Positions 1 to 64,000 of a stretch of DNA of 64,000 nucleotides are shown piece after piece. The notes beneath the pieces were generated by a model. It was not told the origin of the DNA. It ran no database searches and saw only the letters and a program-made list of their open reading frames with translations. This DNA comes from a virus (lineage: Duplodnaviria; Caudoviricetes). The stretch is taken from IMG/VR virus record IMGVR_UViG_3300010163_000009, positions 32,001 through 96,000 of that record, one strand, 5' to 3'. Position 1 is the first letter of the stretch; every line of letters starts with the position of its first letter. Both the position numbers and the translations under genes were made by a program.

Positions 1-5
1 TAGAT

Positions 6-842
6 GTGCAATCTTTCGTCTTATGGTTTGAAAGTGGCTTAAACGCGCTTAAAATAGTCTGTTTCAAAAATGAGATTGTTCTGCTGGGTAATTGTACTCT
101 CGAAACTTGTGAAATTATTGGTTCACTACTTGAAGATGGTTCGGTAAGTACTGAAATCCTCACTGTAGCTAATAGCGAAATATCTGAAGCTTCTGAGACT
201 GATTCTCAAAAGTTTTATGAAGCCCTCTTTGCCAACAACCTCCAACCCGACCCTAACAAGCTACGCCTTGTCCCCAAATATATTCCCCAAAACAGCGACC
301 GGGTAATCTTTTACGACTACTCGCTGGAAGTTCAAGGTGTTGGGGTGGTTCGCCATATAGACTCCGAGCATGACGTGATGTTCTATTGCTATTTTACCTA
401 TCCGACTCTAAGCAAACCAAAACGAATCGGCTACTCACTGTATGAGACTCCGGGATACGACATCCGCACTATAGTATTCGAGAATATCGACAAGGAGAAT
501 ATACAAACCACGCTTGGGAACTCTACCAGTTGTTTCCGTCGTCTTGGCAGAGAACTCGAAAAGGTTGGAAAAGTGTGGAAGGATAAAACTCTAAGAATCG
601 AACCACTCAATGTTATGGTTCCTATTGGAGAAAAATACTACTACATTTCGGATAAAATGGATGTGAAGCAGGAAACTGAAAAGGGAACGCCGACATCACG
701 TTTCCGTTATTTGGCTGGGAACTATTTCACAACTCATAAAGCAGCCATGCTTATGGAAGGTAAATTTAGCGAATTATTGAGAAACTATCTTGCTTCCGAC
801 GAATGGCCAGAAGTGATAGATGAGACTGATGGCAATAAATAA
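6..842 (+). CDS. Hypothetical phage protein (probably 5'-truncated by the window edge)
   Basis: 278-aa ORF with only a GTG start at the window edge; followed by a hairpin; no recognisable catalytic motif. Confidence 0.6.
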   Translation: MQSFVLWFESGLNALKIVCFKNEIVLLGNCTLETCEIIGSLLEDGSVSTEILTVANSEISEASETDSQKFYEALFANNLQPDPNKLRLVPKYIPQNSDRVIFYDYSLEVQGVGVVRHIDSEHDVMFYCYFTYPTLSKPKRIGYSLYETPGYDIRTIVFENIDKENIQTTLGNSTSCFRRLGRELEKVGKVWKDKTLRIEPLNVMVPIGEKYYYISDKMDVKQETEKGTPTSRFRYLAGNYFTTHKAAMLMEGKFSELLRNYLASDEWPEVIDETDGNK

Positions 843-843
843 A

Positions 844-890
844 AATAACGACCGGCGCGATTGTTTTGCCAATTCCTGCCGGTCGTTATT
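844..890. terminator. Putative bidirectional terminator between convergent genes
   Basis: 13-bp perfect inverted repeat AATAACGACCGGC (844-856) / GCCGGTCGTTATT (878-890) between stops at 842 (+) and 907 (-). Confidence 0.65.
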
Positions 891-906
891 GCGTTCTGTT
901 AATATA

Positions 907-2850
907 TCACTGGAGTGACTTATGTGCTATCGTGTCGGTATATCCATTCCGTTCGTTCCACTCGACTACATTCTCTGCTGAAAAAATATACGCTTTTTTG
1001 TGTACTCCATCACAAGGCTTGTATTTGCCGTTTAGAACACCCGTGAACTCGTTATACCCCACAGATGGCAAACTATAGCACCAAGGTTTCAAAAGATGAT
1101 CTGGAAGACCACCACCGCTTTCTAATGCCGTTCCTTTGCCGTCGGTGAACTCGTCGATTATATTTTCTTCGCCTGAAATCACAAAGTCACGATAGAAATT
1201 CTTGATTGCGGATTCAATCGGAGAAAGGTCGGAATCGTCAGCAGACAAGATAAGGCTTATGAGTTTTTTATTCTGAGAGTTCTTGGTTCTCTTATCTCCT
1301 TTGCTGGAAATGAAAACATCATTTGCCTCTATGTCGTAAAAACGGTCAATTGCAACTTTCAATGCAGGTACCGATTTATCTTGCATAGTGCATGGACTCC
1401 ACTGGAAGATTTCGTATGGGTTGAAATCCTGGAATGTTTTAAATCCAAATTTAACCTCCCATTCATTGTTATCCCCATAAACATACCTGCCTTGTTCTAT
1501 CGCTCCAGTCATATCCTCATAGACGTTCTTGGCAAGAGAATAAATCTCGTCCTGTGGAAGTGCGGCTCCTATCATCTCTTTCCAATCGTAATTTTGAGGC
1601 TCATCCACCAGATCTCCTTCTTCATCTATTTTCTGTGAGGGATGGTAATGGTCACAATAAAGGTTGTAGATGCCATCCCAGAATTGATATAGGAAAAAAT
1701 CTACTGGGGATTGCACAACCTCGTCAAGACGGTCTACGATCTCTTTTGCTCTTTCGACTTTTATGAAAGGTTTGTTACGGTAAGAGTTTCTTGCCCTCAT
1801 AGACCGTTCCGCTCTTTTTAGAGTTTGCTGGGAAATGTCCTCAATCTCCATGAAATCTTTTGAGGGTTTATCCAAATCCAATATTTCAACTTTTCCAAAA
1901 CCCTCAAAACCTTTTTGAATATCTTCCTGGAAGTTTTCGTTTTGAACCTCGCTTTTTAGAGGAACGGCCTCCTTTATTCTTTTATTTATTATATATATTA
2001 TTACTGTCCTACAAAAATGTAGGATTTTTAAGGTCAAATCCTGCAAAAATGTAGGATTGTTCCCTACAAAAATGTAGGATTTTTGTAGGTCGTTTATGAG
2101 AGATTCTGGAAAATGTCCTGTATCAAACGCGCATTTTATATATTCTCGTAAATTACCACCCTGCAAAAATGTAGGGTTTTCAGATGTACCCCTACAAAAA
2201 TGTAGCGTTTCAGCAATCTCTTTACAAAAACCCTGCAAAAATGTAGGATTTAAGGAATCGACAAATTCATCAAATTCGCAATATTCCCTACAAAAATGTA
2301 GGGTTTTGGCAATCTCTTGGGCTAAATCCTGCAAAAATGTAGGATTTTGTGGATCTTGTGGCGATACTCCTACATTATTGCAGGATTTATCATCTGATAT
2401 AACAATTGAATTTCCAGCAAGTCCGATCAATTCGGTACACCCCTGCATTTTTGTAGGATTGTTGGAATCTGTTATTGTTGACGTTCCCTTCTTTTGGAAC
2501 TCTTTGGCAAATGTTTTTCTATCATTAGTGGATAGGGATTCGTAATGTTTTAGCACTGCAACATACTCGTTACACAAAATTTTTATTCCATTCTTATATT
2601 TTGTGATCAATCCAAGTTTCTCTAATCGCTCTATGCAACCTGGTAGAGTTCGATATGGGTCAACATGAGTCAACTCTCCCAATTTGGCCAATGATATTTT
2701 TACTGTTTGTTCATATATGGAGCGAGACAGTTGAATACGCACCATATCAATTAGACGTTGGAAAACAACCCTGTCGGATGTATTTATGATAAGTTCGTCA
2801 TTTGCTATAAAATGCAAACCATAACGTGCTACCTGTGATTTATTTTTCAT
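907..2850 (-). CDS. Putative replication initiator (N-terminal winged HTH) containing an internal iteron array
   Basis: 647 aa; N-terminal wHTH-like segment (ISLAKLGELT...CIERLEKLGLITK); internal DNA repeat array plus AT-rich tract, an arrangement like lambda O/ori. Confidence 0.6.
   Translation of the reverse strand: MKNKSQVARYGLHFIANDELIINTSDRVVFQRLIDMVRIQLSRSIYEQTVKISLAKLGELTHVDPYRTLPGCIERLEKLGLITKYKNGIKILCNEYVAVLKHYESLSTNDRKTFAKEFQKKGTSTITDSNNPTKMQGCTELIGLAGNSIVISDDKSCNNVGVSPQDPQNPTFLQDLAQEIAKTLHFCREYCEFDEFVDSLNPTFLQGFCKEIAETLHFCRGTSENPTFLQGGNLREYIKCAFDTGHFPESLINDLQKSYIFVGNNPTFLQDLTLKILHFCRTVIIYIINKRIKEAVPLKSEVQNENFQEDIQKGFEGFGKVEILDLDKPSKDFMEIEDISQQTLKRAERSMRARNSYRNKPFIKVERAKEIVDRLDEVVQSPVDFFLYQFWDGIYNLYCDHYHPSQKIDEEGDLVDEPQNYDWKEMIGAALPQDEIYSLAKNVYEDMTGAIEQGRYVYGDNNEWEVKFGFKTFQDFNPYEIFQWSPCTMQDKSVPALKVAIDRFYDIEANDVFISSKGDKRTKNSQNKKLISLILSADDSDLSPIESAIKNFYRDFVISGEENIIDEFTDGKGTALESGGGLPDHLLKPWCYSLPSVGYNEFTGVLNGKYKPCDGVHKKAYIFSAENVVEWNERNGYTDTIAHKSLQ
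2008..2457. repeat. Array of ten ~16-bp quasi-palindromic repeats CCTRCA-AAAA-TGTAGG (putative iterons / origin)
   Basis: Copies start at 2008, 2040, 2063, 2160, 2191, 2232, 2287, 2328 (forward) and 2369, 2442 (inverted); AT-only tract at ~1980-2003 adjoins the array. Confidence 0.85.
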
Positions 2851-3726: not shown

Positions 3727-4267
3727 ATTTGTTTATGAAGCTTGGGCAGTTTTCACCGCCAATTTGATAATCTTTTGGAACTATATTCCACGGTTCATCC
3801 GGTTCTGCGATGTCGGCCCGGTACCACAAGCAATGGTACCGGTCAAAGCAGCCTTTTGATAAACACATTTCAGCATCGAATCCGATTATTCTCCGGTATT
3901 CATCTCTCGTGATAAATTTGTATTGATCCGGGACCAGTTTAGACAATCTTGATGGTATTACCCCACGAAGTATCATGTCCATTACGGTATATACATCTTT
4001 GGTGCCTGTTTTTACCAAGAACTGTAATGTTATCGCCCTTGTTTTGCTGAGTGGTAATTGCTTTAGCGGTTGAGTCAATTTGTATAATTCTCCGCTGACA
4101 ATAATGGTGTCCGGCTCCGGGTTGTTTAGCCAATTCATCCAGTAGGCGCAGTCAAAGCATATCTGCTCGTTCCTCATTCTGGAAACCAGAGGATTTTTGA
4201 TTGAGCGGAAGGCTTCAAGGTCTTCTCTCTTGCCACAAAAAGAACAGGTAATGAATGTATGTGCCAT
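3704..4267 (-). CDS. Hypothetical Cys-rich (probable Zn-binding) protein
   Basis: CSFC, CFDC and CxxxxCxxxxxC clusters; ATG at 4267 preferred over the upstream TTG at 4342. Confidence 0.6.
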   Translation of the reverse strand: MAHTFITCSFCGKREDLEAFRSIKNPLVSRMRNEQICFDCAYWMNWLNNPEPDTIIVSGELYKLTQPLKQLPLSKTRAITLQFLVKTGTKDVYTVMDMILRGVIPSRLSKLVPDQYKFITRDEYRRIIGFDAEMCLSKGCFDRYHCLWYRADIAEPDEPWNIVPKDYQIGGENCPSFINKYGFNNNY

Positions 4268-4357
4268 GCCCTTGTAGATGATACACGGTATATGTGTAGG
4301 TGGAATATTGATTATGTAAGGGCACAACAACGTGTGCTTCAATTTGGGAACCTTGAA

Positions 4358-4945
4358 TTAAAGGTTTATAGAGGCGTAGATGCCAGCAACTTCTTCTTGA
4401 GTAATTCCGATGTAGGTCTTAGTAACCGCAATGGAGCTGTGGTTTAGAATCTTGTTTAGAAGAATAAGACTTTCGGCGCTGTGGTTGTTTGTGTCATAGA
4501 CGTATCTGCCAAAGGTTTTTCTGAACGTGTGAGTGGAAAAGTTTTCAATATGCAGGTGGTACCTACATTTGAACTCTTTTAACTTCATATTGACGTTCTG
4601 GATGGTCATTGGTTTATCTCCATTTGGAGATGGCATGATGTAGTCTTTCTTGTCTGGCCGACCGAGAAGCTGCCAGAGGTCGTAGAAACTTTTCTGAACC
4701 GATGGGTTGAATGGAATTTTTCGTGTTTTCCTTGTCTTTTGCTCGGTAATAGTTACAGATGATACTCCCAGAATGTCTTGCCATCTGAAATTTAAAGTGT
4801 CAGACGCACGACAGGCTGTGCAAAATGATAAACGTGCGTACATTTCCCAACGATAATCTCCGTCTTTGTGGAGACAATCGAGTAATCTTGTGAACTCCTC
4901 ATAAGGGAGATGATCACTGGTTGTAATTTGATTTTTCTGTCCCAT
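4358..4945 (-). CDS. Tyrosine recombinase (catalytic domain only)
   Basis: R (ACRASD), K (EQKT), HxxR (HTFRKTF), H (LNHSS), Y (TKTYI) catalytic pattern; only 195 aa. Confidence 0.9.
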   Translation of the reverse strand: MGQKNQITTSDHLPYEEFTRLLDCLHKDGDYRWEMYARLSFCTACRASDTLNFRWQDILGVSSVTITEQKTRKTRKIPFNPSVQKSFYDLWQLLGRPDKKDYIMPSPNGDKPMTIQNVNMKLKEFKCRYHLHIENFSTHTFRKTFGRYVYDTNNHSAESLILLNKILNHSSIAVTKTYIGITQEEVAGIYASINL

Positions 4946-4972
4946 AATATAATTATACTTTCATTTTTATAT

Positions 4973-5005
4973 TGCAAAGGTATATAATGAAATTCAAAGA
5001 ACAAA
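4973..5005 (-). promoter_or_regulatory. Bacteroidota primary-sigma promoter for the recombinase-initiator operon
   Basis: Minus strand TTTG (5002-5005), 19-bp spacer, TACCTTTGCA (4973-4982). Confidence 0.75.
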
Positions 5006-5017
5006 AAGATTTAATTA

Positions 5018-5047
5018 AAAATAGTCTTTTTGCAATAAAATATTTTA
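5018..5047. promoter_or_regulatory. Operator-like repeated element, copy A
   Basis: AAAATAGTCTTTTTGcaATAAAATATTTTA, 28/30 identical to 8976-9005. Confidence 0.55.
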
Positions 5048-5113
5048 GGATAAACAAAAAGACACTGGTTAAATTGTATCATAATAACCAGTGTCTCAAC
5101 GGATAATGTGTAC

Positions 5114-7057
5114 TTATAATTCTTTGAATGAATCAATGGAAAAGATTGGTATTCCGAGTGCTCTTGCTTTGACGGCTTTGCTTGAGGATGAATTAGGGTC
5201 TGCCACAATTAGATGCGTCGTACTCTTGGAAACACCGCTTACAACTTCTCCTCCTTGTGCCGCAATTTCAGATTCCAGTTCTTTGTCACGTACACCTGTA
5301 AAGCAAACTTTCATTCCGGCATATTTGGTTCCTGTCGGCTTTATCGCTTCTTCCATAGGTAGAATCTTTAGCCTATTCTTTGCAACAAATTCATAGAACG
5401 GTGTGATGCCTTTCAAGAAGGACTGTGACGTTTTGTTTAATGCAAGGAATTGTGGTGTCTGATCAAAACCTTCTTCGGTAAACACATATCCATGAGTAAA
5501 AGCAAATCTATCGTTTTCGGACAAGTTTGAAACAATACTTTTTGCTTTGACTTGGCCTATACCCAGGAAACAATCACTGGCGTGCATAAGTTTGATAATA
5601 TCAATGCCGTCTCTGATTTTCTTGTTTGCCGCCAGTATTGTGTTTGCAATAGATTCTCCAAATCCTTCAATTAGCATGAGTTCGTCGAAGGTAATGTCAA
5701 GTATTCGCTGGAGAGTATCATATCCGGATTTAAACATTTTGGAGATAGTCTCTTCGCCCATTTGTTCTGCTTCCAATGTTGTATAGAAGTGGATTATTTT
5801 TGCAAGGCGTATGCCGGAGCAGTCAGGATTGGTACAAATCAACTCAACTTTTGTATCATTCCATTTTGTTGGCTGTCCGCAATTTGGGCAGTACAGAAGA
5901 TTGTCCCGTTGTTCCATCATAGTTTCAGCAGTAGCTTCTTCCATCACACTAAGGATTTTGGGGATTACCCCTCCAGAACGGGTGACTGCGATACGTGCTC
6001 CTGGTCCTATGCTATTCTCAAAGATATACTTGGCATTGTAGCCTGTAGGGTTCTCCATTGTGCAGTCACCTGTATCAACTGCATCAATATTAACAACAGG
6101 TTTCAATGCACCGGCTTTGCTGACTTTCCAGTCTATACCTTTAACCGTGCTCTCAAATACATCAGTGAAGTCTGGGTGTTTATATGCGATTGCATAGAGA
6201 GGATTTCCGGTGGTTTGTTGCCGTCCGATGGTTTCCCAGAGCAAAATGTCGTTTAAGTAAATGACGAGTCCATCAATGTAATAGTCTTTTCGCCATGCTT
6301 TGAATAGATTGGCTAACTTGGTTTCATCAAGCTCTGCTACTGTTACGATTGTACCGTAAATGCGTTGATGATATTTTTCGCAAAGAGTTTGAAGCAATTG
6401 AGCATAGCTTTGAAAATTGTCCAGATCCATAGCACTTACGCCATATCGATAGAATGTTGTGTGCTTTAGGATTTCTGACGGTTCATCACGATTGATAAGA
6501 CCGGCAACCGTATTGCGAGGAGATTTGAATTTTTCTCCTGTTGCATCTGAAATTCTTCCGGCCAATTCCTGTTCCCATGTTTTACAATCAAACACTAACT
6601 CTCCAAATGTATAATGTAGGTGACTGGTGCCATCTTCTTTATAAGAAGCCAGCAGATCGTAATGCTGGGAACAATCTTGTCCTTCATTGTCTGCACCGCC
6701 ACGTGAATATGTCTTTTTTGCGAACTCATCTCGCAGCCAAGATACGCCATCGAATTTAGGAGTGATTACAAGTTTAGCTGTTTCCGGGATTGACAATGAA
6801 TTTAGCCATTGCTTAATCTCTGTAACAGATTTTACCTTATTGAGAGATTTCATAGGTATGGGAAGTTTAACTTTTCTTCCTTTACTTACTACAGATGGTT
6901 CGACTTGTTGAAACCATTCATTATTTGGGTCAAGCGTTTTAAGTTCATTGACCTTTTTGTCGTACTCGGCATCTGATATTGTTGGATGTCCGGCACGGTA
7001 TGCTTCGTTGTTTTCTTTTATTTCAGCGAGTAGCTGAACGATTCTTGAACTATTCAT
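5114..7057 (-). CDS. ligA: NAD+-dependent DNA ligase
   Basis: KFDG adenylation motif, N-terminal YRAGHPTISDAEYD (domain Ia), DGLV, AIAYK, Zn finger CPNC...C...C, HhH, C-terminal BRCT (VSGVSKSTTHLI). Confidence 0.95.
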   Translation of the reverse strand: MNSSRIVQLLAEIKENNEAYRAGHPTISDAEYDKKVNELKTLDPNNEWFQQVEPSVVSKGRKVKLPIPMKSLNKVKSVTEIKQWLNSLSIPETAKLVITPKFDGVSWLRDEFAKKTYSRGGADNEGQDCSQHYDLLASYKEDGTSHLHYTFGELVFDCKTWEQELAGRISDATGEKFKSPRNTVAGLINRDEPSEILKHTTFYRYGVSAMDLDNFQSYAQLLQTLCEKYHQRIYGTIVTVAELDETKLANLFKAWRKDYYIDGLVIYLNDILLWETIGRQQTTGNPLYAIAYKHPDFTDVFESTVKGIDWKVSKAGALKPVVNIDAVDTGDCTMENPTGYNAKYIFENSIGPGARIAVTRSGGVIPKILSVMEEATAETMMEQRDNLLYCPNCGQPTKWNDTKVELICTNPDCSGIRLAKIIHFYTTLEAEQMGEETISKMFKSGYDTLQRILDITFDELMLIEGFGESIANTILAANKKIRDGIDIIKLMHASDCFLGIGQVKAKSIVSNLSENDRFAFTHGYVFTEEGFDQTPQFLALNKTSQSFLKGITPFYEFVAKNRLKILPMEEAIKPTGTKYAGMKVCFTGVRDKELESEIAAQGGEVVSGVSKSTTHLIVADPNSSSSKAVKARALGIPIFSIDSFKEL

Positions 7058-7113
7058 AAAGATAAAAATATGGGCGTACCAAGTAGCGATGCGCCCTATT
7101 AATGGTGAATAAA

Positions 7114-7584
7114 TTAGTGGGTTCCGGTAGAGTTATAGCTTCCTTCACCGCGCTCGGTATTTCCTAATTCATTTACGGTAACTAAGTCACCGCTCCAGTG
7201 CTGTTCAATTACCATTTGGGCGATACGTGTGCCAGCTGTTACAAGAAATGGTTTTGTTTCATGGCTGTTTACGATAACCCCTACATTTCCACGATAATCG
7301 GAGTCAATTGTACCAATGAGAACATCGCAGTCAAATCTTGTAGGAGTTTCTTCGTGTCCATTATTTGTAATGACATAGCCTTCAAATCCCTTTGCAGAGA
7401 ACCCAGAACGCGGACGAATCTGTGCTTCATATCCGATTTCAAGTTCTATTGCAATATCGATTGGAATTACGCTTCGACCAGGCTTTATAATGGTATCTTT
7501 GGGGACATAGAGGTCATAACCTGCTGCTTGTTCACTGCCCTTAGTCGGCACTTTTGCATTTGGTGATAAAAGTTTGATTTTCAT
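7114..7584 (-). CDS. dut: Trimeric dUTPase
   Basis: Motifs AGYDL, RPRSG, GTIDSDYRG, RIAQ, RGEGSYNSTG. Confidence 0.95.
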   Translation of the reverse strand: MKIKLLSPNAKVPTKGSEQAAGYDLYVPKDTIIKPGRSVIPIDIAIELEIGYEAQIRPRSGFSAKGFEGYVITNNGHEETPTRFDCDVLIGTIDSDYRGNVGVIVNSHETKPFLVTAGTRIAQMVIEQHWSGDLVTVNELGNTERGEGSYNSTGTH

Positions 7585-7928
7585 TTTTTATTGCTTTTAG
7601 AACGTTGTTTATATTTCATCCCCTTGCGAGACATACTGGCAGTAGGGTAATATGCACGTGTCACGCCGCACATAGAATCATATTCTTCCAGTTTTAGAGT
7701 TCCATAGTCGCTATCCTCAATTTCAATGTCCTTAGCCAGAAATCGGAAATAAAGACCGCAACTGGATATACAAGGTCCAACACACGCCTGATGTATGGAT
7801 GAGTTTGAGGTCTTGAAAGCGGTGGCCGCTGCTGTTAGCGAATGGAAATAACCAATGAATCGTTTAAGGGGATTGAAGACCAAAACAGGATTACTGGTTT
7901 TGTTATTCAGACTTTTCTTCATAGTCAC
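7581..7928 (-). CDS. Small NUMOD1-like DNA-binding protein (no nuclease domain seen)
   Basis: PVLVFN...IGYFHSLTAAATAF...SSIHQAC resembles the NUMOD1/IENR1 HTH module. Confidence 0.5.
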   Translation of the reverse strand: MTMKKSLNNKTSNPVLVFNPLKRFIGYFHSLTAAATAFKTSNSSIHQACVGPCISSCGLYFRFLAKDIEIEDSDYGTLKLEEYDSMCGVTRAYYPTASMSRKGMKYKQRSKSNKK

Positions 7929-8358
7929 TTATCGCTGAAAGGACTCTGTTTGACAAACGAGTTCGTGCCGCTGATACAAGATATGTATCTGAGACTGCTA
8001 CTCCGTGTGCGAATAGTTCAAAGGTCCTATCGCACATGTATGCCAAAAAGTCGGGTTCGACAAATGCTATGAAAAGGAACAGGAATGTTCCATCAATTAG
8101 GTAATGCCCTTCTTCGTTGATGAGACACACTTGGTCGTCTTGAATTTCGTATGTATCGCAAAGTGATTTTATTTGGTAGCGATACTGATTGAAGAATGGC
8201 TGTATGGGCTTAGGCTCTGTCATCTTCGACAGATAGAGTGTTGCGTCAAAGTACGAGTGCCCGGATTCGCTTTGACCAAAGAGCAGATTTGGAAATTCAG
8301 GAAAGGACTGCTCTTTACACTGGAGTTTTATTTCGCCCTTCCCGGCCTGTCCCAACAT
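7903..8358 (-). CDS. Hypothetical protein (weak KilA-N-like resemblance)
   Basis: 151-aa ORF coupled to neighbours; YFDATLYLSK segment. Confidence 0.5.
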   Translation of the reverse strand: MLGQAGKGEIKLQCKEQSFPEFPNLLFGQSESGHSYFDATLYLSKMTEPKPIQPFFNQYRYQIKSLCDTYEIQDDQVCLINEEGHYLIDGTFLFLFIAFVEPDFLAYMCDRTFELFAHGVAVSDTYLVSAARTRLSNRVLSAISDYEEKSE

Positions 8359-8903
8359 CAGTTAAGGTTAAAAGCTGCAACCTTATTCTTATGTACATCA
8401 AGTGGCCAATATATTGCTTCGGTCTTGTCAAATTTGGTATCTCGGATTACGAAATCCGACATTGTTTTTTTGAGGTGCTGGTAAATCCTGTTGGTTGCAT
8501 CAGCGTTAGAAGATGCAGGAACATAGTAGTCCTCAGTGCTTTTCTTTTCTTTGGCTGTTTTTTCGTCAATAGTAATAAACATTACTTTGACATTATAAAG
8601 TCCAACACCAGTTGATTCGTCTTCCTCAAAGAAGTTGCAGCAGAAATTTTTTACAGTTTCTTCTTGTTGTAGAATTTCGTTGAACAATACATCAGAGATT
8701 TTTGTCTTGACGATCTCGTAGCTTACGCTTCCGAATTGTGTACGGTTGAGAGAAGATATGATTTCATTTACAAGCATTTCAGCTTCAGTGTAGCTGGTTG
8801 CAAGTATCAGTTCCTCAATCTTCTTTTTTGCCAAAGCACCAGTCGGAAGCTCGACTGTACATTCCGTTTTCACTCGGAAATAACTGAGTTCTTTTTCTTC
8901 CAT
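8358..8903 (-). CDS. DUF4494-like Bacteroidota protein
   Basis: Recognised pattern ATSYTEAE and KVMFITIDEKTAKEKK. Confidence 0.6.
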   Translation of the reverse strand: MEEKELSYFRVKTECTVELPTGALAKKKIEELILATSYTEAEMLVNEIISSLNRTQFGSVSYEIVKTKISDVLFNEILQQEETVKNFCCNFFEEDESTGVGLYNVKVMFITIDEKTAKEKKSTEDYYVPASSNADATNRIYQHLKKTMSDFVIRDTKFDKTEAIYWPLDVHKNKVAAFNLN

Positions 8904-57283: not shown

Positions 57284-57553
57284 ATGCAAAAGTTGAATTA
57301 CAATGATAGATTAAAAAAGGAAGGCAAAAAGCATAAAAAGGTTCTTGATAAGCATCTCAAAGATTTCTTTCAGTTACTTGATTCAAAGCCAAAGCCTACC
57401 AATGAAAAAGTTCGAGCTGAGTTCATAAGACATGAGGCAGAATGGCGCTTGTATAGTGTCACGCACGGTCTTGGGACACGTATAGCAGATTTGTTTAACG
57501 CTAACGTGTCACTCGAATGGGAACGAAAGTACACCTTACCGAGCAAAAAGTAG
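57284..57553 (+). CDS. Hypothetical protein
   Basis: 89-aa ORF coupled between resolvase and sigma factor. Confidence 0.55.
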   Translation: MQKLNYNDRLKKEGKKHKKVLDKHLKDFFQLLDSKPKPTNEKVRAEFIRHEAEWRLYSVTHGLGTRIADLFNANVSLEWERKYTLPSKK

Positions 57554-58167
57554 ATGTCGATTGCCTTCCAGAAGTCATAGCCCGCAGAACAGCTCTCTTC
57601 AATAAATACATTCGTCCTTTCTCCAATATGATATTCAAGTTATGCAAGGATTACAGTTGGAGACCTCAGAATGTTGAAGAGAACTATTCTGAGGTTATGG
57701 TAAACTTCTATCGCAGAATAGAGACCTACGATACAAATCGGCCAATAAAAGCATGGATTCATACTTGTGTTAAACATCAGGTTTGGGCGTGCGAGCGTCA
57801 ACGTCAAGCTCATAATAACAAGAGCGATGACCTTGACATCGAGGATTATAAAGACGACATATTGGACGATGAACACGTAAGTGGGAATGTATTAGGCATA
57901 GACAACTGGCGGGAGCATTATAATTCCGACATCATAGAGGTTCTTGAGGAGTTGAAACCGCGCCACCGTGACGCACTTATACTCCAAGAAGCTGGGTATT
58001 CGCTTAAAGAAATTGCGGAAATTGAATATGCTAAAGGGTCGTTAAAAACGCCAAATATAGAAACGATTAAAAGCCGGCTAAGGTTGGCAAGACAACATCT
58101 AAAAAACAATATCACTAAAGATGGTCAACGAATATCTTATAAAACAGACATTGAAGATGTTCCATGA
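57517..58167 (+). CDS. Phage-encoded ECF-type sigma-70 factor
   Basis: Region 2-like (FNKYIRP...YDTNRPIKAWIHT) and region 4-like (LKPRHRDALIL..AGYSLKEIA...TIKSRLRLARQHL). Confidence 0.85.
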   Translation: MGTKVHLTEQKVDVDCLPEVIARRTALFNKYIRPFSNMIFKLCKDYSWRPQNVEENYSEVMVNFYRRIETYDTNRPIKAWIHTCVKHQVWACERQRQAHNNKSDDLDIEDYKDDILDDEHVSGNVLGIDNWREHYNSDIIEVLEELKPRHRDALILQEAGYSLKEIAEIEYAKGSLKTPNIETIKSRLRLARQHLKNNITKDGQRISYKTDIEDVP

Positions 58168-58708
58168 GATTGCAATCAAACTCATACATCCAGGCTATCG
58201 ATTTCCACAAGGAGGGGAACCGACAAGAATCATGCGTACAGCCCTTCAGAGAATAGAGAAAAAACATGGTGTGCTTACCGCACAAAGAATAATTGATTAT
58301 GTGGTATGCTCGTCCTATGCTTTCAAAGACAGAGGCTCTAATTGGAAATTGAATCAAGTGTTTGGTCCCAAATCTATTGAACGTTTCAATTCAGACAAAG
58401 GCAGGGTATATTTTGAAAATAAATGGCTGGAGTCTGAAGGGCTCAGTCGTTCATCATTGCTCAATATGATTATTGACCGCAGTGAACACCCAAAAGCAAA
58501 GTTCATTTTCATCCCCAGTGAAGAAGGTACAAAACAACGGCTTCTTAATAGAAATGTAGGATTTGTCGTGTGCCAGACATCTACCCTTGGGTGGTCTCCA
58601 TTGTCAACAGCATGTTCAGAGTGCGTATTCGTGGAAAAATGTAAAACAGAAACTCAAAAAAAATATCCGGAAATATTCCGATTAAGAATAGAATATGTCA
58701 GCAAGTAA
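58121..58708 (+). CDS. Hypothetical protein with C-terminal Cys cluster
   Basis: 195 aa; C...CSEC...C; overlaps helicase start. Confidence 0.6.
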   Translation: MVNEYLIKQTLKMFHEIAIKLIHPGYRFPQGGEPTRIMRTALQRIEKKHGVLTAQRIIDYVVCSSYAFKDRGSNWKLNQVFGPKSIERFNSDKGRVYFENKWLESEGLSRSSLLNMIIDRSEHPKAKFIFIPSEEGTKQRLLNRNVGFVVCQTSTLGWSPLSTACSECVFVEKCKTETQKKYPEIFRLRIEYVSK

Positions 58709-60041
58709 TAAAACAAACGTTCTTTCTGAAGCTTTCATCGAAGACTTATTCGTCACATGTATTGAAGACAGCTACATTCTTTCGATGGTATGCGAGCATT
58801 TGGAAGAAGAACACCTTCCAGATCGCAATACAGCGGCTGTTCTAAAGGCTTTCAAGGAATACTATAGAACTTACCGGAGAGTTCCAAATTATTCTATAAT
58901 CCAACAAAAACTCGCCGGTAAGAATGGTGCTCTTAGATTTTGGGAAGAGGCGTATGACAATGGGGAAGCATTTGCTACCGATGAATGTCTTGGTCTGTTG
59001 GAAGAATATCTGAAACGTGTCGAGTTCCAGAAAATGTATAAAAAGGTCGGAGAAATATATAATCGTGAAGGATTGGAAAATGCCCAGCTAATGCTTTCTA
59101 AACATGTAGATTGGATGAGAACATTTTCCTTGACGGAATCGACATATACTGACGTGATTGATACATTCATTACCCGGCATATCCAGAATCGGGCAAAAAA
59201 CAATGCGCGTGGAGCAATCAGGGCTATTACTCGATTCTATATCGATGAGTTGGATAACCTTAATCAAGACAGAGACCTTCGTGGGCAGTTATCTTGTATT
59301 TTGGCTCCGACTGGCGTAGGTAAAAGCCATGCCTCACGTTGGATTGGTTCACAGGCTTGCATTGACGGCTTTAATGTTCTTCATTTTCAGTTGGAAGGCA
59401 GTCGAGAAGAAGTCGAAAACGCTTACTCGGCAGCGTTGGTTGCTTGTAACGCTTACAGCTATGAGAAAGGGTTTATCAAGGACAAGGATATGGATGTCTT
59501 CGCTAAAGAAATTGAGGATATTGCCGGTAAATTGTTTGTAAGAAGTTACCCTAAATTCAATCAGCACGTTTCCACAATCAATATTAAAGAAGCCATTGCT
59601 GAATTTCGTAAAAACTACAATGTCAAGCCTGATATAGTCATCATTGACTCTATGGACTTGCTGACAGATTCTTCAGGACGAAAATATGGAGATAGTGGAG
59701 AGCGTTTGAAACGTATCGCAGTGGCCAATGACCTTAAAGATATTGCCAGTGAAGAAGAAGTCTGGGTGGTGGTTACATATCAGGCCCGCATTGAAAACCC
59801 TGATTGGGTGAATGATGAGAAAAACGTACTGACGGAGTATTTTTCTTCGGAAGCGAAAGGCATAGCTCAGCCACTGACTCACTTGATTACCCTTAATCAA
59901 TCAGCTAATGAACGCAGGGAAAAGACAATGAGAATACACGTGGCCAAAAGCAGATTCTTCCCCAAAGGAGATACGATTAAAATCGCCACTGATTATGACC
60001 ATGAAAGATTTTTTGACCGGACCAGAACAGCTAATCTTTAA
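58695..60041 (+). CDS. Replicative helicase (DnaB/T4 gp41-like)
   Basis: Walker A APTGVGKS, FQLE, IIDSMDL, TYQ, VAKSR. Confidence 0.9.
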   Translation: MSASNKTNVLSEAFIEDLFVTCIEDSYILSMVCEHLEEEHLPDRNTAAVLKAFKEYYRTYRRVPNYSIIQQKLAGKNGALRFWEEAYDNGEAFATDECLGLLEEYLKRVEFQKMYKKVGEIYNREGLENAQLMLSKHVDWMRTFSLTESTYTDVIDTFITRHIQNRAKNNARGAIRAITRFYIDELDNLNQDRDLRGQLSCILAPTGVGKSHASRWIGSQACIDGFNVLHFQLEGSREEVENAYSAALVACNAYSYEKGFIKDKDMDVFAKEIEDIAGKLFVRSYPKFNQHVSTINIKEAIAEFRKNYNVKPDIVIIDSMDLLTDSSGRKYGDSGERLKRIAVANDLKDIASEEEVWVVVTYQARIENPDWVNDEKNVLTEYFSSEAKGIAQPLTHLITLNQSANERREKTMRIHVAKSRFFPKGDTIKIATDYDHERFFDRTRTANL

Positions 60042-60056
60042 TATACGGAGGTGTTT

Positions 60057-61103
60057 ATGTATATCAGCAAAGAGGATAAGGAATATTTGATACGTGAGCT
60101 TCAAACGGAGCTTCATGCAAGATTGGATGGAGGTCGTAAAAATCTGATTGTACCCGAATGTATGTGGTGCGGAAAGACCGGTGGCAAACTTGGAATTTAC
60201 GTTGGTCCCGAAAAGAATGGAAAAATCTTTGGGATGGCTCATTGCTTTTCTTGTGGTAGGACTTGTAAAGATCTCAACCGATTTGTAGATGAGATTGGTC
60301 GTTCAGACCTACAAATTCAAGATACAGTTAAATTTACTCCAGTGGAAGTACCTGAGTTCTTCAATCTGGAAGAAGATGAAATTGACGATGAGTTAGTGGT
60401 CGTGGAGATGCCAGAGTCATGGAAACGATGCTTTAAAAATTCATATTTGAAGTCTCGTGGCTTTACAGCTGATGACTATGCTTATTTCCCAGTTGGAACC
60501 ACTCGCGGTTTGAATTTCAAGTTCGATGATTATGTGGTTTTTCCTATTTATGATGAAGGTGATATAGTAGGATATGTTTCACGTCACGTTTGGAGCAAGG
60601 CTGACATTGACGAATATAACGATAGAGCAAAACGTAACGGCAAATACCAAATTCGCAGATACAATAACAGCATTGAAAACGATTTTGTCAAGCTATTATA
60701 CAATTATGATTCTGTGATAGAAGACGAGACAGACACTGTAATATTGGTTGAGGGTATATTTGATGTCATTGCCCTTACCCGAAAACTCGACTTGTATGAC
60801 AATCATCGAATTGTAGCTGTCTGTACGTTTGGAAAGAAAATAAGTGACACCCAAATTTACAAGCTTCAAAGCAAGGGTGTTCGTGACATTATTATAGGTT
60901 ACGATGCCGATGCGTCTGACGCAATTAATGTAGCCGCCGACAAATTGAATGAGTATTTTGACAATGTAATGATTGCCAAACTCGTAGGAGAAGGTAAGGA
61001 TTTTGATGATGCTGACTTTTGGGACATCTACGATACCTTTTCAGAATCTCTTTTTACTCCAATCGAATATAAATTGAGTAACGTAGATGGCAAAATCAGA
61101 TAG
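60057..61103 (+). CDS. DNA primase (Zn finger + TOPRIM)
   Basis: CMWC...HCFSC, YLKSRG, EGIFD, YDAD. Confidence 0.9.
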   Translation: MYISKEDKEYLIRELQTELHARLDGGRKNLIVPECMWCGKTGGKLGIYVGPEKNGKIFGMAHCFSCGRTCKDLNRFVDEIGRSDLQIQDTVKFTPVEVPEFFNLEEDEIDDELVVVEMPESWKRCFKNSYLKSRGFTADDYAYFPVGTTRGLNFKFDDYVVFPIYDEGDIVGYVSRHVWSKADIDEYNDRAKRNGKYQIRRYNNSIENDFVKLLYNYDSVIEDETDTVILVEGIFDVIALTRKLDLYDNHRIVAVCTFGKKISDTQIYKLQSKGVRDIIIGYDADASDAINVAADKLNEYFDNVMIAKLVGEGKDFDDADFWDIYDTFSESLFTPIEYKLSNVDGKIR

Positions 61104-62820
61104 AATAACAGAGCTATATGAATGGCTTGAAAAGAATAAAATCAAGTACATTCTGGTGGATTCGGACGTGATTGATATTCCTGGTTTTGGGAAAGCTTAC
61201 TTCCAAGACACACAGCGTTCAACCTATAATTCCATTTTCCGCAAAGACGTGGACGGCAATTTTATTTTTAATAGCATGGTACGTCCAGAAGAATTGCTGA
61301 ACGATGGAATTGAAAATATCGTGTTCAAATTTGGCAATAACTTTTACTACCACAATCTCAACCAAGATTTTAAACTGAATATCTTGAAATATGTTGGTGA
61401 ACGTACTCCGCTTCGGCATAATATTCCATTTGTTAACCTTGGAGTGCATACCCCCTTTGAACTTCTGAACGGAAGTTTTATGCCGGATGAATGGATTCGC
61501 AAAGCAAAATACCTTGGACACACTGCACTTGGAATCTGTGATTACAATACGATGGCCGCTTGCTTTATCTTCCAAAAAGAATGTGACGCAGCCGGAATCA
61601 AACCAGTGTTCGGGTATTCACTTACTGTGGAAGCCGAAGATTTCAAGTTTGGAGCAAAGGTCTATGTCCAGACACAACGTGGTTTCCGTAATTTGCTGAG
61701 GATTCAAAAAGCCATTATGGTTGATAATGTAGAAAATAAAACCATTGACATATCTGAACTTCTTAATCGGGCTGAAGGAAACGTGCTGGTGCTGGACAAA
61801 TACGCACCCACTTCTTTTGTAGAAAATGAGGACGTGGTTTCTATATTGAGTAAGGATTTTGACGCTATTTACTATCAAGTCGATTTATCTGAATACAAAG
61901 CAGAGCGTATTGATATTAAAATTTTAGAAGCGACCAAGAAATACTTCCATGAATGGTATGGTAATCCTCAAATGCCGAGACCGGTTCTCCTCAGTGACGC
62001 ATATTATTTGGATGTTGATGACGCTAAAAACAAAATCATTCTTAATAAGGTCGCTGAAGGTGCAGCACATGAGCAAAGCAACGACCAATATTTTAAGGAC
62101 GCAGACGAGCATTATGCTTTATTTGAAGCATTGTTTGGAGAAGACTGGGATATAGAAGAACTATTTCGTGAGTGCGCAGAAAATACATTCGCTATTGCAA
62201 ATAACGCCAAAGGTCGTATGGACACTACCAGAAACTATATGCCAAAGTATGATATGACGGAAGTGGAGCGGGAAAAGTATGGTACCACTCACAATATGTT
62301 CAATCAACTTTTGGAAGAAGGTCTTCAGCGTTTGGCCCCTAAAGATAAGATTGAGCAATACAGGAAGCAAATGGAATATGAGAAGTACATTATCGAATCT
62401 ACTGATAATGTGGATTATTTGCTGGTGCAATACGATACTTGTAACTGGGCACGTAAGAACAACATCTTTGTAGGATGTGGTCGTGGCTCAGCAGCGGGCT
62501 CGCTACTTCTCTATTTGCTGGGCATTACGCTTATCGATCCTATCAAATACAATCTCATCTTTGAGCGTTTCTTGCTACCTGAGCGTGCCGGGCTATCCCA
62601 GGCAGACACTACCATTATCGGTAACGATATTGATTCTAACCATTATATTGAACTCACATTGGATAATAGTAAAACTATTATGGTTGATGTCGATGCTGAA
62701 TTTATGGTTAGGAGATACGGCGAACAAGAACCTGTCAGGGTTTATGCCGATGAATTACAGAAAGATGATGATATTATCTTTGATAACAAAGACATTCTTT
62801 TCACAATCAACGAGTTATAA
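61087..62820 (+). CDS. dnaE: DNA polymerase III alpha, N-terminal fragment of a split DnaE with intein-like C-terminal tail
   Basis: PHP-like domain, GRGSAAGSL, DPIKYNLIFERFLLPER, then 77 non-DnaE residues and stop; no PDIDxD. Confidence 0.85.
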   Translation: MAKSDRITELYEWLEKNKIKYILVDSDVIDIPGFGKAYFQDTQRSTYNSIFRKDVDGNFIFNSMVRPEELLNDGIENIVFKFGNNFYYHNLNQDFKLNILKYVGERTPLRHNIPFVNLGVHTPFELLNGSFMPDEWIRKAKYLGHTALGICDYNTMAACFIFQKECDAAGIKPVFGYSLTVEAEDFKFGAKVYVQTQRGFRNLLRIQKAIMVDNVENKTIDISELLNRAEGNVLVLDKYAPTSFVENEDVVSILSKDFDAIYYQVDLSEYKAERIDIKILEATKKYFHEWYGNPQMPRPVLLSDAYYLDVDDAKNKIILNKVAEGAAHEQSNDQYFKDADEHYALFEALFGEDWDIEELFRECAENTFAIANNAKGRMDTTRNYMPKYDMTEVEREKYGTTHNMFNQLLEEGLQRLAPKDKIEQYRKQMEYEKYIIESTDNVDYLLVQYDTCNWARKNNIFVGCGRGSAAGSLLLYLLGITLIDPIKYNLIFERFLLPERAGLSQADTTIIGNDIDSNHYIELTLDNSKTIMVDVDAEFMVRRYGEQEPVRVYADELQKDDDIIFDNKDILFTINEL

Positions 62821-62822
62821 TT

Positions 62823-64000
62823 ATGGAATTGACAGAAGAAATGAGTCGTGCGTTTCAAATCATAGAAGAAACGACAGACAGCCTTTTCATCACCGGAAAG
62901 GCTGGAACCGGGAAGACTACATTCCTGAAGTACATAGTTGAACACACCCACAAAAATATCATTGTGGCTGCATCAACTGGAATAGCAGCTATAAATGCGG
63001 GAGGTGTGACGTTGCATAGTTTGTTTGGAATCCCGTTTGAACTGCAAGGACCTAACACTCCGATTAAAGGAAAACTGTATCAAGATAAATTTGAGCTATT
63101 TGGTAAACTTGATACCATTATCATTGATGAGGCAAGCATGGTTCGTCCGGATGTTCTGGATTATGTGGATCGTAAGCTGAGGCTCTACCGGATGAATGAA
63201 TTACCATTTGGAGGTGTTCAGGTTGTGTTGTTCGGAGATTTGTTCCAGTTGCCGCCTGTCATTAAAAAAAACGAAGAAGTTATTTTGCATCAGTGGTATC
63301 GAGGCAATTATTTCTTTCATTCTCATGCACTGAGAGAGTCAGGTTTCCAGATTGTCGAACTTACCAAAGTGTTTCGTCAAAGGGATGAGCGCTTCGTGAA
63401 TATGTTGAACCGCATACGGGAATACCAACTTCTTCCTATGGATATTGATGACCTCAGTGAATTACGTGATAACCGTGAGAGCAAAGATTTCACAACACAA
63501 GCCATTCATATTTGTTCTTTGCGCCGTGATGCAGACAGAATCAATAATCAAATGATTGGAGAAGCCACACACACATTCCCAGCAGAGTTCAAAGATGCTT
63601 TTAACCCCAAGAATGCTCCATGCGACTTGAATTTGAAGCTGCGTGAAGGTGCACGAGTTATGACACTTGTGAATGACAACCAACAAGGATTTTATAATGG
63701 CTCTATGGGTACTGTTAGCTGGATAAGTACGACAAAAATAGGAGTGCTATTGGATGCCGGACATGAAGTTATTATTGAACCATTTACTTGGATTGATCGT
63801 GAATATAAAGTTAATGGAAATGAAATAAAAACGATTGAAAAGGGAAGCTGTAGGCAATTCCCCCTTACCCTTGGATGGGCTATTACAATCCATAAAAGCC
63901 AGGGGCTGACATTTGACAATGTGGTTATTCATTGCCCTTATGTATTTGCCCCTGGAATGTTATATGTTGCACTTAGCCGATGTACTTCAATGGAAGGAAT
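62823..64000 (+). CDS. Pif1/RecD-like SF1B helicase (3'-truncated by window; absent from ORF track)
   Basis: MELTEEMSRAF...FITGKAGTGKT, ASTGIAA, IIDEASM, FGDLFQLPP, FRQ, WAITIHKSQG, YVALSR. Confidence 0.92.
   Translation, partial: MELTEEMSRAFQIIEETTDSLFITGKAGTGKTTFLKYIVEHTHKNIIVAASTGIAAINAGGVTLHSLFGIPFELQGPNTPIKGKLYQDKFELFGKLDTIIIDEASMVRPDVLDYVDRKLRLYRMNELPFGGVQVVLFGDLFQLPPVIKKNEEVILHQWYRGNYFFHSHALRESGFQIVELTKVFRQRDERFVNMLNRIREYQLLPMDIDDLSELRDNRESKDFTTQAIHICSLRRDADRINNQMIGEATHTFPAEFKDAFNPKNAPCDLNLKLREGARVMTLVNDNQQGFYNGSMGTVSWISTTKIGVLLDAGHEVIIEPFTWIDREYKVNGNEIKTIEKGSCRQFPLTLGWAITIHKSQGLTFDNVVIHCPYVFAPGMLYVALSRCTSMEG

Follow-up and report, generated by a model that had tools for sequence, protein, structure and literature searches.

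How does a phage replicate its DNA if the gene for its only DNA polymerase stops directly before the residues that catalyze polymerization? This question was raised by a 64,000-nucleotide stretch of DNA (here called the window) from a virus of the Caudoviricetes (Duplodnaviria), consisting of bases 32001 to 96000 of the 107,197-bp IMG/VR virus record IMGVR_UViG_3300010163_000009, which is 97% complete. Close to the end of the window lies an open reading frame (ORF) for the N-terminal half of DnaE, the C-family polymerase (polymerase III alpha subunit). In an earlier note, made from the sequence alone, this ORF was followed through the DnaE motif FERFLLPER into an intein-like tail that ends in a clean stop, with the next gene starting 2 nucleotides (nt) later, and this description was borne out by the ORF and its sequence, with corrections only to the tail length (77 amino acids, 62587 to 62817) and to the residue taken as intein position 1. 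The note went on to suggest that a splicing-dead split intein had been kept as an assembly clasp for a two-chain polymerase. Our analysis indicated that the missing half of DnaE is encoded in the same operon, that the tail is homologous to the Hint domain of inteins and that the residues for splicing have been lost; the tail, together with a short leader on the second half, is probably a non-splicing, noncovalent clasp that joins the halves of the enzyme. The features of the window that bear on this question are the following.

61087..62820, + strand: ORF of the DnaE N-half (DnaE-N; 577 amino acids [aa]), with a PHP domain, the first part of the palm and a Hint-N-like tail (from the ORF list, the sequence and Pfam)
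61087..62586, + strand: N-extein, DnaE residues 1 to 500, ...GRGSAAGS...FERFLLPER (collinear with DnaE of Chryseobacterium phage MA9V-3, in which the gene is unsplit)
62587..62817, + strand: 77-aa Hint-N-like tail, residues 501 to 577, a putative degenerate split-intein N-fragment (from profiles, hhalign and models)
62587..62589, + strand: Ala501 codon (GCC), intein position 1 (A1 invariant in 39 aligned tails)
62686..62697, + strand: D534-V-D-A537, in the place of the block B TxxH (from hhalign and conservation)
62737..62817, + strand: most conserved, acidic end of the tail, residues 551 to 577 (VYADELQ.DDDIIFDNKDILFTINEL) (from identity and charge)
62818..62820, + strand: TAA stop of DnaE-N (from the sequence; the helicase ATG, at 62823, is 2 nt further on)
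62823..64000, + strand, cut by the window end: Pif1/Dda-like superfamily 1 helicase between the DnaE halves (from Pfam PIF1; E = 2.9e-33)

In Pfam searches, DnaE-N matched PHP at residues 119 to 230 (E = 2.7e-13) and DNA_pol3_alpha (PF07733) at residues 405 to 507 (E = 4.4e-28). The latter match covered only positions 3 to 105 of the 260 in the profile, indicating that the ORF ends just before the catalytic aspartates. The polymerase sequence runs ...GCGRGSAAGS...IFERFLLPER, with PER at residues 498 to 500, and the tail that follows opens with AGLSQADTTII and continues ...YIELTLDNSKTIMVDVDAEFMVRR...VRVYADELQKDDDIIFDNKDILFTINEL; along its length, it can be summarized as AGLSQADTTII ... DVDAEFMV ... 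VYADELQKDDDIIFDNKDILFTINEL. Just beyond the window, a second PF07733 match (profile positions 74 to 260) and a DNA_pol3_finger match were detected in the same record. These belong to a 725-aa ORF, dnaE-C, at window-equivalent positions 64135 to 66312 (4136 to 6313 of locus L004), the ATG of which lies 135 nt past the window end. The protein starts with a 32-aa leader, MKITKIQEYNTKHPVKVLDCFVDSGYVKTEHG, followed by SLPDVDNDF, with LPDVDNDF at residues 34 to 41, and Pfam matches to palm positions 93 to 260 of PF07733, to the fingers (PF17657 and PF14579) and to HhH were obtained. The intervening helicase ORF, when complete, encodes 441 aa (L004 2824 to 4149; PIF1 E = 3.7e-33), and its 3' end, at window-equivalent 64148, shares 14 nt with the start of DnaE-C at 64135. 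The canonical DnaE order of PHP, palm with PDxD, fingers and HhH is kept and is spread over two ORFs. The earlier note was right to place the C-half outside the window; it had expected this half elsewhere in the genome, and it was found instead in the same operon, behind the helicase gene. A C-half with PDxD near its N terminus therefore exists, and the pseudogene that the note had allowed for did not materialize. No PolA or PolB gene was found in the 97%-complete genome of this gut Bacteroides phage, in which the split DnaE is the sole DNA polymerase.

The comparison set consisted of 55 IMG/VR loci (59 to 92% identity) and two GenBank phages, BS-TP1 and MT835494. The same stop, tail and leader were present in all 55 IMG/VR loci, and the tail and leader were also present in both GenBank phages. 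The nearest of these, Bacteroides phage BS-TP1, is a cultured phage of B. salyersiae with 91% protein identity and the same three genes. A helicase of 430 to 448 aa was located between the halves in BS-TP1 and in every one of the 51 IMG/VR loci that span both halves. In MT835494 (locus L006; 47.6% identity), a DNA methylase and an HNH endonuclease replace the helicase, indicating that varied cargo genes use the space between the halves as a landing pad, and in lineages P0025 (locus L063) and P0035 there is no helicase and the halves directly adjoin. The origin of the split was indicated by Chryseobacterium phage MA9V-3, which has a single unsplit DnaE of 1,185 aa reading FERFLNEGR-VGK-SLPDIDND. 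Just VGK separates EGR from SLPD in this protein, which has neither tail nor leader; hence these represent an insertion of 77 plus 32 aa between PER and SLPD, and the split is the derived state. A search for the unsplit form, as longer proteins carrying the tail, found none. An exhaustive search with the tail profile detected no active intein ancestor, the matches being DnaE-N-type proteins or fragments and four seemingly unrelated repeat proteins only, and a six-frame search of the phage's own genome with the intein profile PF14890 gave nothing at E values of up to 10.

Similarity to the Hint fold, which the earlier note had proposed from motifs seen by eye, was found both with profiles and with a structural model of a family member. 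The Pfam profile PF14890 (Intein_splicing) matched 36 of 39 distinct family tails scanned singly (best E = 5.4e-5), and PF01079 (Hint) matched 4 of the 39; scans of the 35-aa leaders alone with Pfam gave nothing relevant. Tail and leader were compared by hhalign with a reference of 41 natural gp41-1-type split-intein loci in which the N- and C-parts were paired. A match was obtained at P = 1.3e-3, with block B in register and with an alignment that crosses the break, and the D-x-D-A of the tail was placed on the S-x-E-H of the gp41-1-type inteins. An AlphaFold2 (AF2) model of the tail alone was of low confidence (predicted local distance difference test [pLDDT] score of 60) and was used as a lead only; all of its VIA-align matches with a Z score of at least 2 were inteins or Hedgehog proteins, including the N-fragment of the Npu DnaE intein (4qfq_A; Z = 3.7).

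A fused model, P0046, was produced from the L063 sequence with its TAG codon read as a residue, using AF2 on alignment A4 of tails and leaders from the family, in which the last 12 tail residues of non-spanning rows were misaligned onto the extein. The pLDDT of this model was 77 overall and 88 to 95 over residues 11 to 70 and 91 to 110, and the leader formed two long strands. Among the Foldseek matches in the PDB listed (to rank 49), all were inteins, Hedgehog proteins or bacterial intein-like (BIL) domains (best E = 8.5e-5; probability, 1.0). VIA-align detected 34 chains with a Z score of at least 5, every one an intein or Hedgehog protein (Npu DnaE 4kl5_A; Z = 5.4). When the Foldseek pre-filter was omitted, Hint domains filled ranks 1 to 27 of 48,161 PDB representatives, with Z scores of 7.7 to 3.8, and many of these alignments ran over P0046 residues 3 to 111 and thus over both tail and leader. 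At the level of the fold, tail plus leader of this family member are predicted to belong to the Hint superfamily of inteins, Hedgehog proteins and BIL domains.

The sequences were examined for the residues on which splicing depends. In active inteins, position 1 is a Cys, Ser or Thr. The earlier note had taken position 1 to be a Gly, but relatives in which the junction reads PER/CGL (L006, P0025 and P0035) place it at the preceding residue, Ala501. Position 1 was Ala in 39 of 39 aligned tails; P0006 and P0011 had Gly there, and Cys was confined to L006, P0025 and P0035. Survival of Cys1 in three distant lineages is the pattern expected of a decayed class 1 (Cys1) intein. Replacement of TxxH by DVDA, also suggested in the note, was upheld by the hhalign placement described above, and D34, D36 and A37 of the tail were each at least 90% conserved, with T-D-A-R at the block B place in L006. 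As anticipated, the leader was devoid of the terminal His-Asn and ended in HG/SLPDVD in the clade of the window and in GG/S elsewhere. The terminal residue, Gly32, was invariant in 30 aligned leaders, leaving no Asn, Gln or Asp for the cyclization step that releases an intein. Residue +1, Ser33 of DnaE-C, was at least 90% conserved (Ala in L006); since it is the native DnaE residue, found as SLPD in the unsplit MA9V-3 protein, it is no sign of splicing activity. The near-total loss of splicing residues inferred in the note was directly visible in the sequence, and splicing is not expected in any member of the family.

Selection on the inserted parts was estimated from ratios of nonsynonymous to synonymous substitution rates (dN/dS). 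The ratio was 0.10 in the tail and 0.03 in the 150 codons before it, and the C-extein gave 0.015 over its first 150 codons. These values show purifying selection on the tail, and its retention in two GenBank phages as well as 55 IMG/VR contigs, at a dN/dS of about 0.10, indicated that it is no chance read-through. Mean pairwise identity was 0.68 in the DnaE-N body, 0.64 in the whole tail and 0.77 in its last 27 residues (551 to 577). Counted up to LP, the leader ORF was the same 35 codons long in each of the 52 loci that yielded it, which gave 32 distinct sequences; residues D19, G25, G32, L34 and P35 were invariant in 30 aligned sequences, and mean pairwise identity was 0.65 over leader residues 17 to 32. 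The two pieces were complementary in charge. The net charge of the tail was -12 in the window, with a family mean of -12.8 (-6.6 for the last 27 aa), and the first 16 residues of the leader had a charge of +1 to +5 in every member.

In the mechanism that we propose, an ancestral intein would have been inserted in phage dnaE between FERFLLPER and SLPDVD, directly before the catalytic aspartates, and would later have been broken in two, with loss of all residues for splicing. The remainder would be a mini Hint domain of 109 aa, made up of an acidic tail of 77 aa and a 32-aa leader that is basic at its start and then hydrophobic; to our knowledge, no active intein is as small as this. Once the coupled operon (dnaE-N, helicase and dnaE-C) had been translated, the tail and leader would co-fold into one Hint-like beta structure. 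With the ends of the Hint chains side by side, PER and SLPD would be brought together, so that the palm would form from two chains, and the enzyme would work as a noncovalent heterodimer in which no peptide bond is made. We infer from these data the binding of the pieces to each other, the absence of splicing and the need of the polymerase for the clasp, and consider it probable, although well short of certain, that tail and leader join the DnaE halves in this way.

Several observations weighed against a clasp of this kind. The match of the window's own tail to PF14890 (E = 0.016; 15.5 bits) was under the gathering cut-off of 35.8 bits, and sequence-profile searches of the PDB with the tail or leader alignment returned no intein. 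P0046 is the model of a relative, with a tail 34% identical to that of the window and read through the stop; its Z scores were at most 7.7, and its last strand (block G region, residues 111 to 128) was of low confidence. Inteins usually occupy sites where an unspliced insert cripples the host protein, and a domain retained beside the catalytic Asp residues needs explaining. The leader, with a dN/dS of 0.53, was less constrained than the tail, and its first 16 residues had a mean pairwise identity of 0.38. Furthermore, in nine relatives, described below, a stop codon and a change of frame separate the leader ORF from DnaE-C; if there is no recoding in these nine, the phages live with an untethered leader and the clasp hypothesis is weakened. 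The poor conservation of the leader and its stop and loss of frame in nine relatives would also suit a neutral relic, in which undeletable leftovers of a dead intein persist, the split palm surfaces drive assembly and the Hint remnant adds little. The NrdA tails of Aeromonas phage Aeh1, moreover, were reportedly not needed for heterodimer formation (PMC3045599). We nevertheless regard a relic as unlikely: the tail is held at a dN/dS of 0.10 and conservation of its last 27 residues exceeds that of the polymerase body, the leader is fixed in length at 35 codons in 52 of 52 loci with five residues invariant in 30, opposite charges are kept in every member, a mobile HNH cassette found in relatives always carries an intact leader copy, and useless coding sequence is quickly shed by phage genomes.

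Another use for the tail and leader would be as a docking site for the co-encoded helicase, a clamp or another replisome protein, or as a regulatory switch, whether or not they also help to join the halves. The exact position of the helicase between the halves and its translational coupling in the 51 spanning IMG/VR loci and BS-TP1 would fit this use, as would a mean tail charge of -12.8, which exceeds the need for pairing with a leader of about +2. It was judged quite unlikely, since the helicase-free lineages P0025/L063 and P0035 and also L006, with its methylase and HNH genes, retain both tail and leader, and no specific third partner is pointed to. A covalent full-length DnaE could in principle be produced by noncanonical trans-splicing, as in Ala1 class 2 or class 3 inteins, both of which share Ala at position 1 with the tail and are represented among the structural matches (KlbA for class 2 and DnaB for class 3); the conserved Ser +1 and the Cys that is common in block F (VLDCFV) also point in this direction. 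However, the class 2 and 3 signatures were absent, there being no terminal Asn and a Ser, not Cys, at +1, and the column two residues past the His-equivalent held Phe or Leu and not the Trp of the class 3 triad. This Trp-Cys-Thr triad occupies block B position 12, block F position 4 and block G position 5; the leader Cys follows the Asp aligned to block F position 4, in a mapping read from the motif itself. Together with the invariant C-terminal Gly, the replacement of the leader Cys by Thr, Ser or Met in several lineages, DVDA in place of TxxH and the Ala at +1 in L006, this makes such splicing very improbable. We give least credence, and hardly any, to a broken gene or to halves rejoined at the level of the RNA or ribosome (through an intron or a bypass across the helicase region), with a tail that is no real part of a protein. 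A stop codon that cuts DnaE right before its catalytic motif is what such a defect would produce, but both halves are full length and strongly constrained, with dN/dS values of 0.03 and 0.015 and a value of 0.10 for the tail, no intron or other Rfam RNA family was found between the halves, the helicase gene shows no interruption, the genome has no other polymerase and the cultured phage BS-TP1 is arranged alike.

The nine relatives with a severed leader (L006, L020, L027, L032, L046, L047, L056, L057 and L059) have a divergent leader allele that is not present in the window. An endonuclease ORF with HNH_3 and NUMOD4 matches immediately precedes the leader in seven of these nine loci. The cassettes are located as follows.

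L047:9001-9666, L059:9017-9674, L057:8821-9720 and L056:9061-9724: cassettes with an endonuclease ORF (HNH_3 and NUMOD4)
L027:3233-3896, L020:5281-6055 and L006:7638-8513: cassettes with an endonuclease ORF (HNH_3 and NUMOD4)
L046:9031-9154 and L032:9114-9237: cassettes without an endonuclease ORF

The cassette leader ORF has 35 codons and ends in ...GSLP-stop, and the 7 or 8 nt that come next (the stop, 1 to 2 nt and NCG) place the catalytic GAT-GTN-GAT in the +1 or +2 frame. Directly upstream of this gap is a 10-bp hairpin (-17 to -21 kcal/mol; z of -4.2 to -5.5), in which all cells of the nine counted pairs were paired, with compensatory changes in 5 of the 9 pairs; the in-frame alleles, including that of the window's phage, have no hairpin. 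At the DNA level, L057 and L058 shared 95 to 96% identity over the helicase and the two halves, yet only 54% in the leader, and cassette leaders were 74 to 84% identical to each other on backbones of 60 to 72% identity. The cassette leader allele is, by these comparisons, horizontally mobile. The simplest uniform reading of the gap is a candidate hop, in which peptidyl-tRNA-Pro would move from CCG (CCA in L020) to the NCG before GAT, restoring ...SLP-DVD... exactly; L027 has a perfect CCG-to-CCG match at the putative take-off and landing codons. Other readings were considered. Independent initiation of DnaE-C is countered by L059 and L020, which lack any start codon (ATG, GTG or TTG) in frame with the polymerase past the last stop, and reassignment of the stop codon by the occurrence of TAA, TAG and TGA alike and by the frame change, which would be needed anyway. 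For -1 frameshifting, a slippery heptamer common to the loci was not seen, and simple +1 or +2 shifts would put two variable residues before the catalytic Asp. The cassette is a candidate for a second endonuclease-plus-bypass family after T4 gene 60 and mobA.

The locus resembles several known systems in part. Fractured genes, including three metagenomic dnaE loci, in which active split inteins flank a free-standing endonuclease, were described by Dassa et al. (2009; PMC2677866). As in those genes, an essential replication gene lies in two neighboring ORFs with a Hint half at each broken end and a gene in between; an HNH homing endonuclease also occurs between the halves, but in seven relatives only, the window having a helicase. 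The fractured genes keep all five catalytic residues and splice, whereas all but Ser +1 are gone here, and the N-part is 77 aa compared to their 88 to 105 aa. In the cyanobacterial split DnaE intein (Ssp/Npu; cited in PMC2677866), the same host protein is in two chains. That intein differs in its insertion site, in having its parts at distant loci and in being catalytically active. The cyanobacterial site adjoins the FNKSH motif, which is intact in the DnaE-C of this phage.

The closest match to the proposed mode of action is the fragmented NrdA-a/NrdA-b of phage Aeh1, whose tails, resulting from mobE insertion, were shown by Crona et al. (2011; PMC3045599) to be essential for activity. It is also a phage enzyme split by a mobile element, and its function is restored, with no RNA or protein splicing, by new C- and N-terminal tails that unsplit homologues lack. 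No intein origin is reported for those tails, and the host protein is ribonucleotide reductase, as opposed to Hint halves and DnaE in the present case. Terminal extensions were generalized to MobA-split topoisomerases by Manning and Atkins (bioRxiv 10.1101/2022.08.31.505936), with T4 gp39/gp60 and its 50-nt bypass. The split host gene and conserved terminal extensions are shared with gp39/gp60, and the cassette of the nine relatives is like MobA in that an HNH-type endonuclease travels with an N-terminal extension and a short untranslated insert. In contrast to the T4 system, the cassette gap is 7 to 8 nt rather than 50 nt, its hairpin is 5' of the take-off codon, and the phage of the window has neither endonuclease nor gap. 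A further likeness is to engineered splicing-dead split inteins, laboratory constructs in which position 1 and the terminal Asn have been knocked out; PDB C1A/N-to-A variants (e.g., 6riz, 9hth and 6zgq) were among the structural matches. Such constructs bind tightly without splicing. By these comparisons, we read the locus as one that works like Aeh1 NrdA and the MobA-split topoisomerases and descends from the fractured-gene type. A literature search, which was incomplete, found no description of a natural split intein that has lost splicing and been retained for assembly.

Other features of the locus and its relatives were recorded. Upstream of dnaE-N, at 57517 to 61103 of the window, is a compact replication operon of a sigma-70-like factor, a 195-aa ORF, a DnaB-like helicase (PF03796) and a Toprim primase with an N-terminal zinc-finger motif. 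Overlaps of a few bases between several of its gene pairs are compatible with translational coupling that extends into dnaE-N. Within L006, positions 6721 to 8393 hold the N6/N4 DNA methylase (PF01555; E = 2.3e-25) followed by the HNH endonuclease, and at L015:7737-8111 an extra 124-aa ORF with no Pfam match is situated between the dnaE-N stop and the helicase. In the Cys1-retaining relative L063, a 2.2-kb contig, the halves are in one frame and are parted by TAG-CGT alone (L063:1930-1960). Some gut phages read TAG as an amino acid; if this is so in L063, that phage would have a single-chain DnaE with a dead, unsplit mini-Hint domain in its interior. In the BS-TP1 record (L005; PQ571274.1 positions 1 to 1629, reverse strand), the N-half alone is annotated as DNA polymerase (gp3) in the stretch examined. 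The C-half ORF extends beyond the first base of this linear record and has no CDS feature, and a 261-nt hypothetical gene on the opposite strand is annotated instead. The two-ORF structure corrects the annotation of this phage group, in which the BS-TP1 record names the N-half alone as the polymerase in that stretch.

Split inteins are known as makers of peptide bonds and endonuclease-split enzymes as proteins rescued by their tails, and this locus joins the two ideas, with putative rescue tails that derive from an intein which gave up splicing but was maintained by selection. It is possible, although we put it forward tentatively and would not presume it, that a whole clade of human-gut Bacteroidota phages has a sole replicase of two chains held together by a dead 109-aa split intein and that, in some members, an HNH cassette has put its own copy in place of the leader and imposes a ribosome hop from CCG to NCG. 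For recoding research, the hairpin and coding-gap cassette in the relatives provides a new and directly testable natural system. If the clasp is real, the two pieces would be a natural counterpart of the engineered clasps with position 1 and terminal Asn knock-outs and would offer protein engineering a very small, nonreactive split-Hint pair, already optimized by nature, with many diverged, possibly orthogonal variants. The palm of DnaE would then tolerate a 109-aa domain directly before its catalytic aspartates, and a selfish element would have been domesticated in these phages into a plain heterodimerization domain of an essential enzyme.

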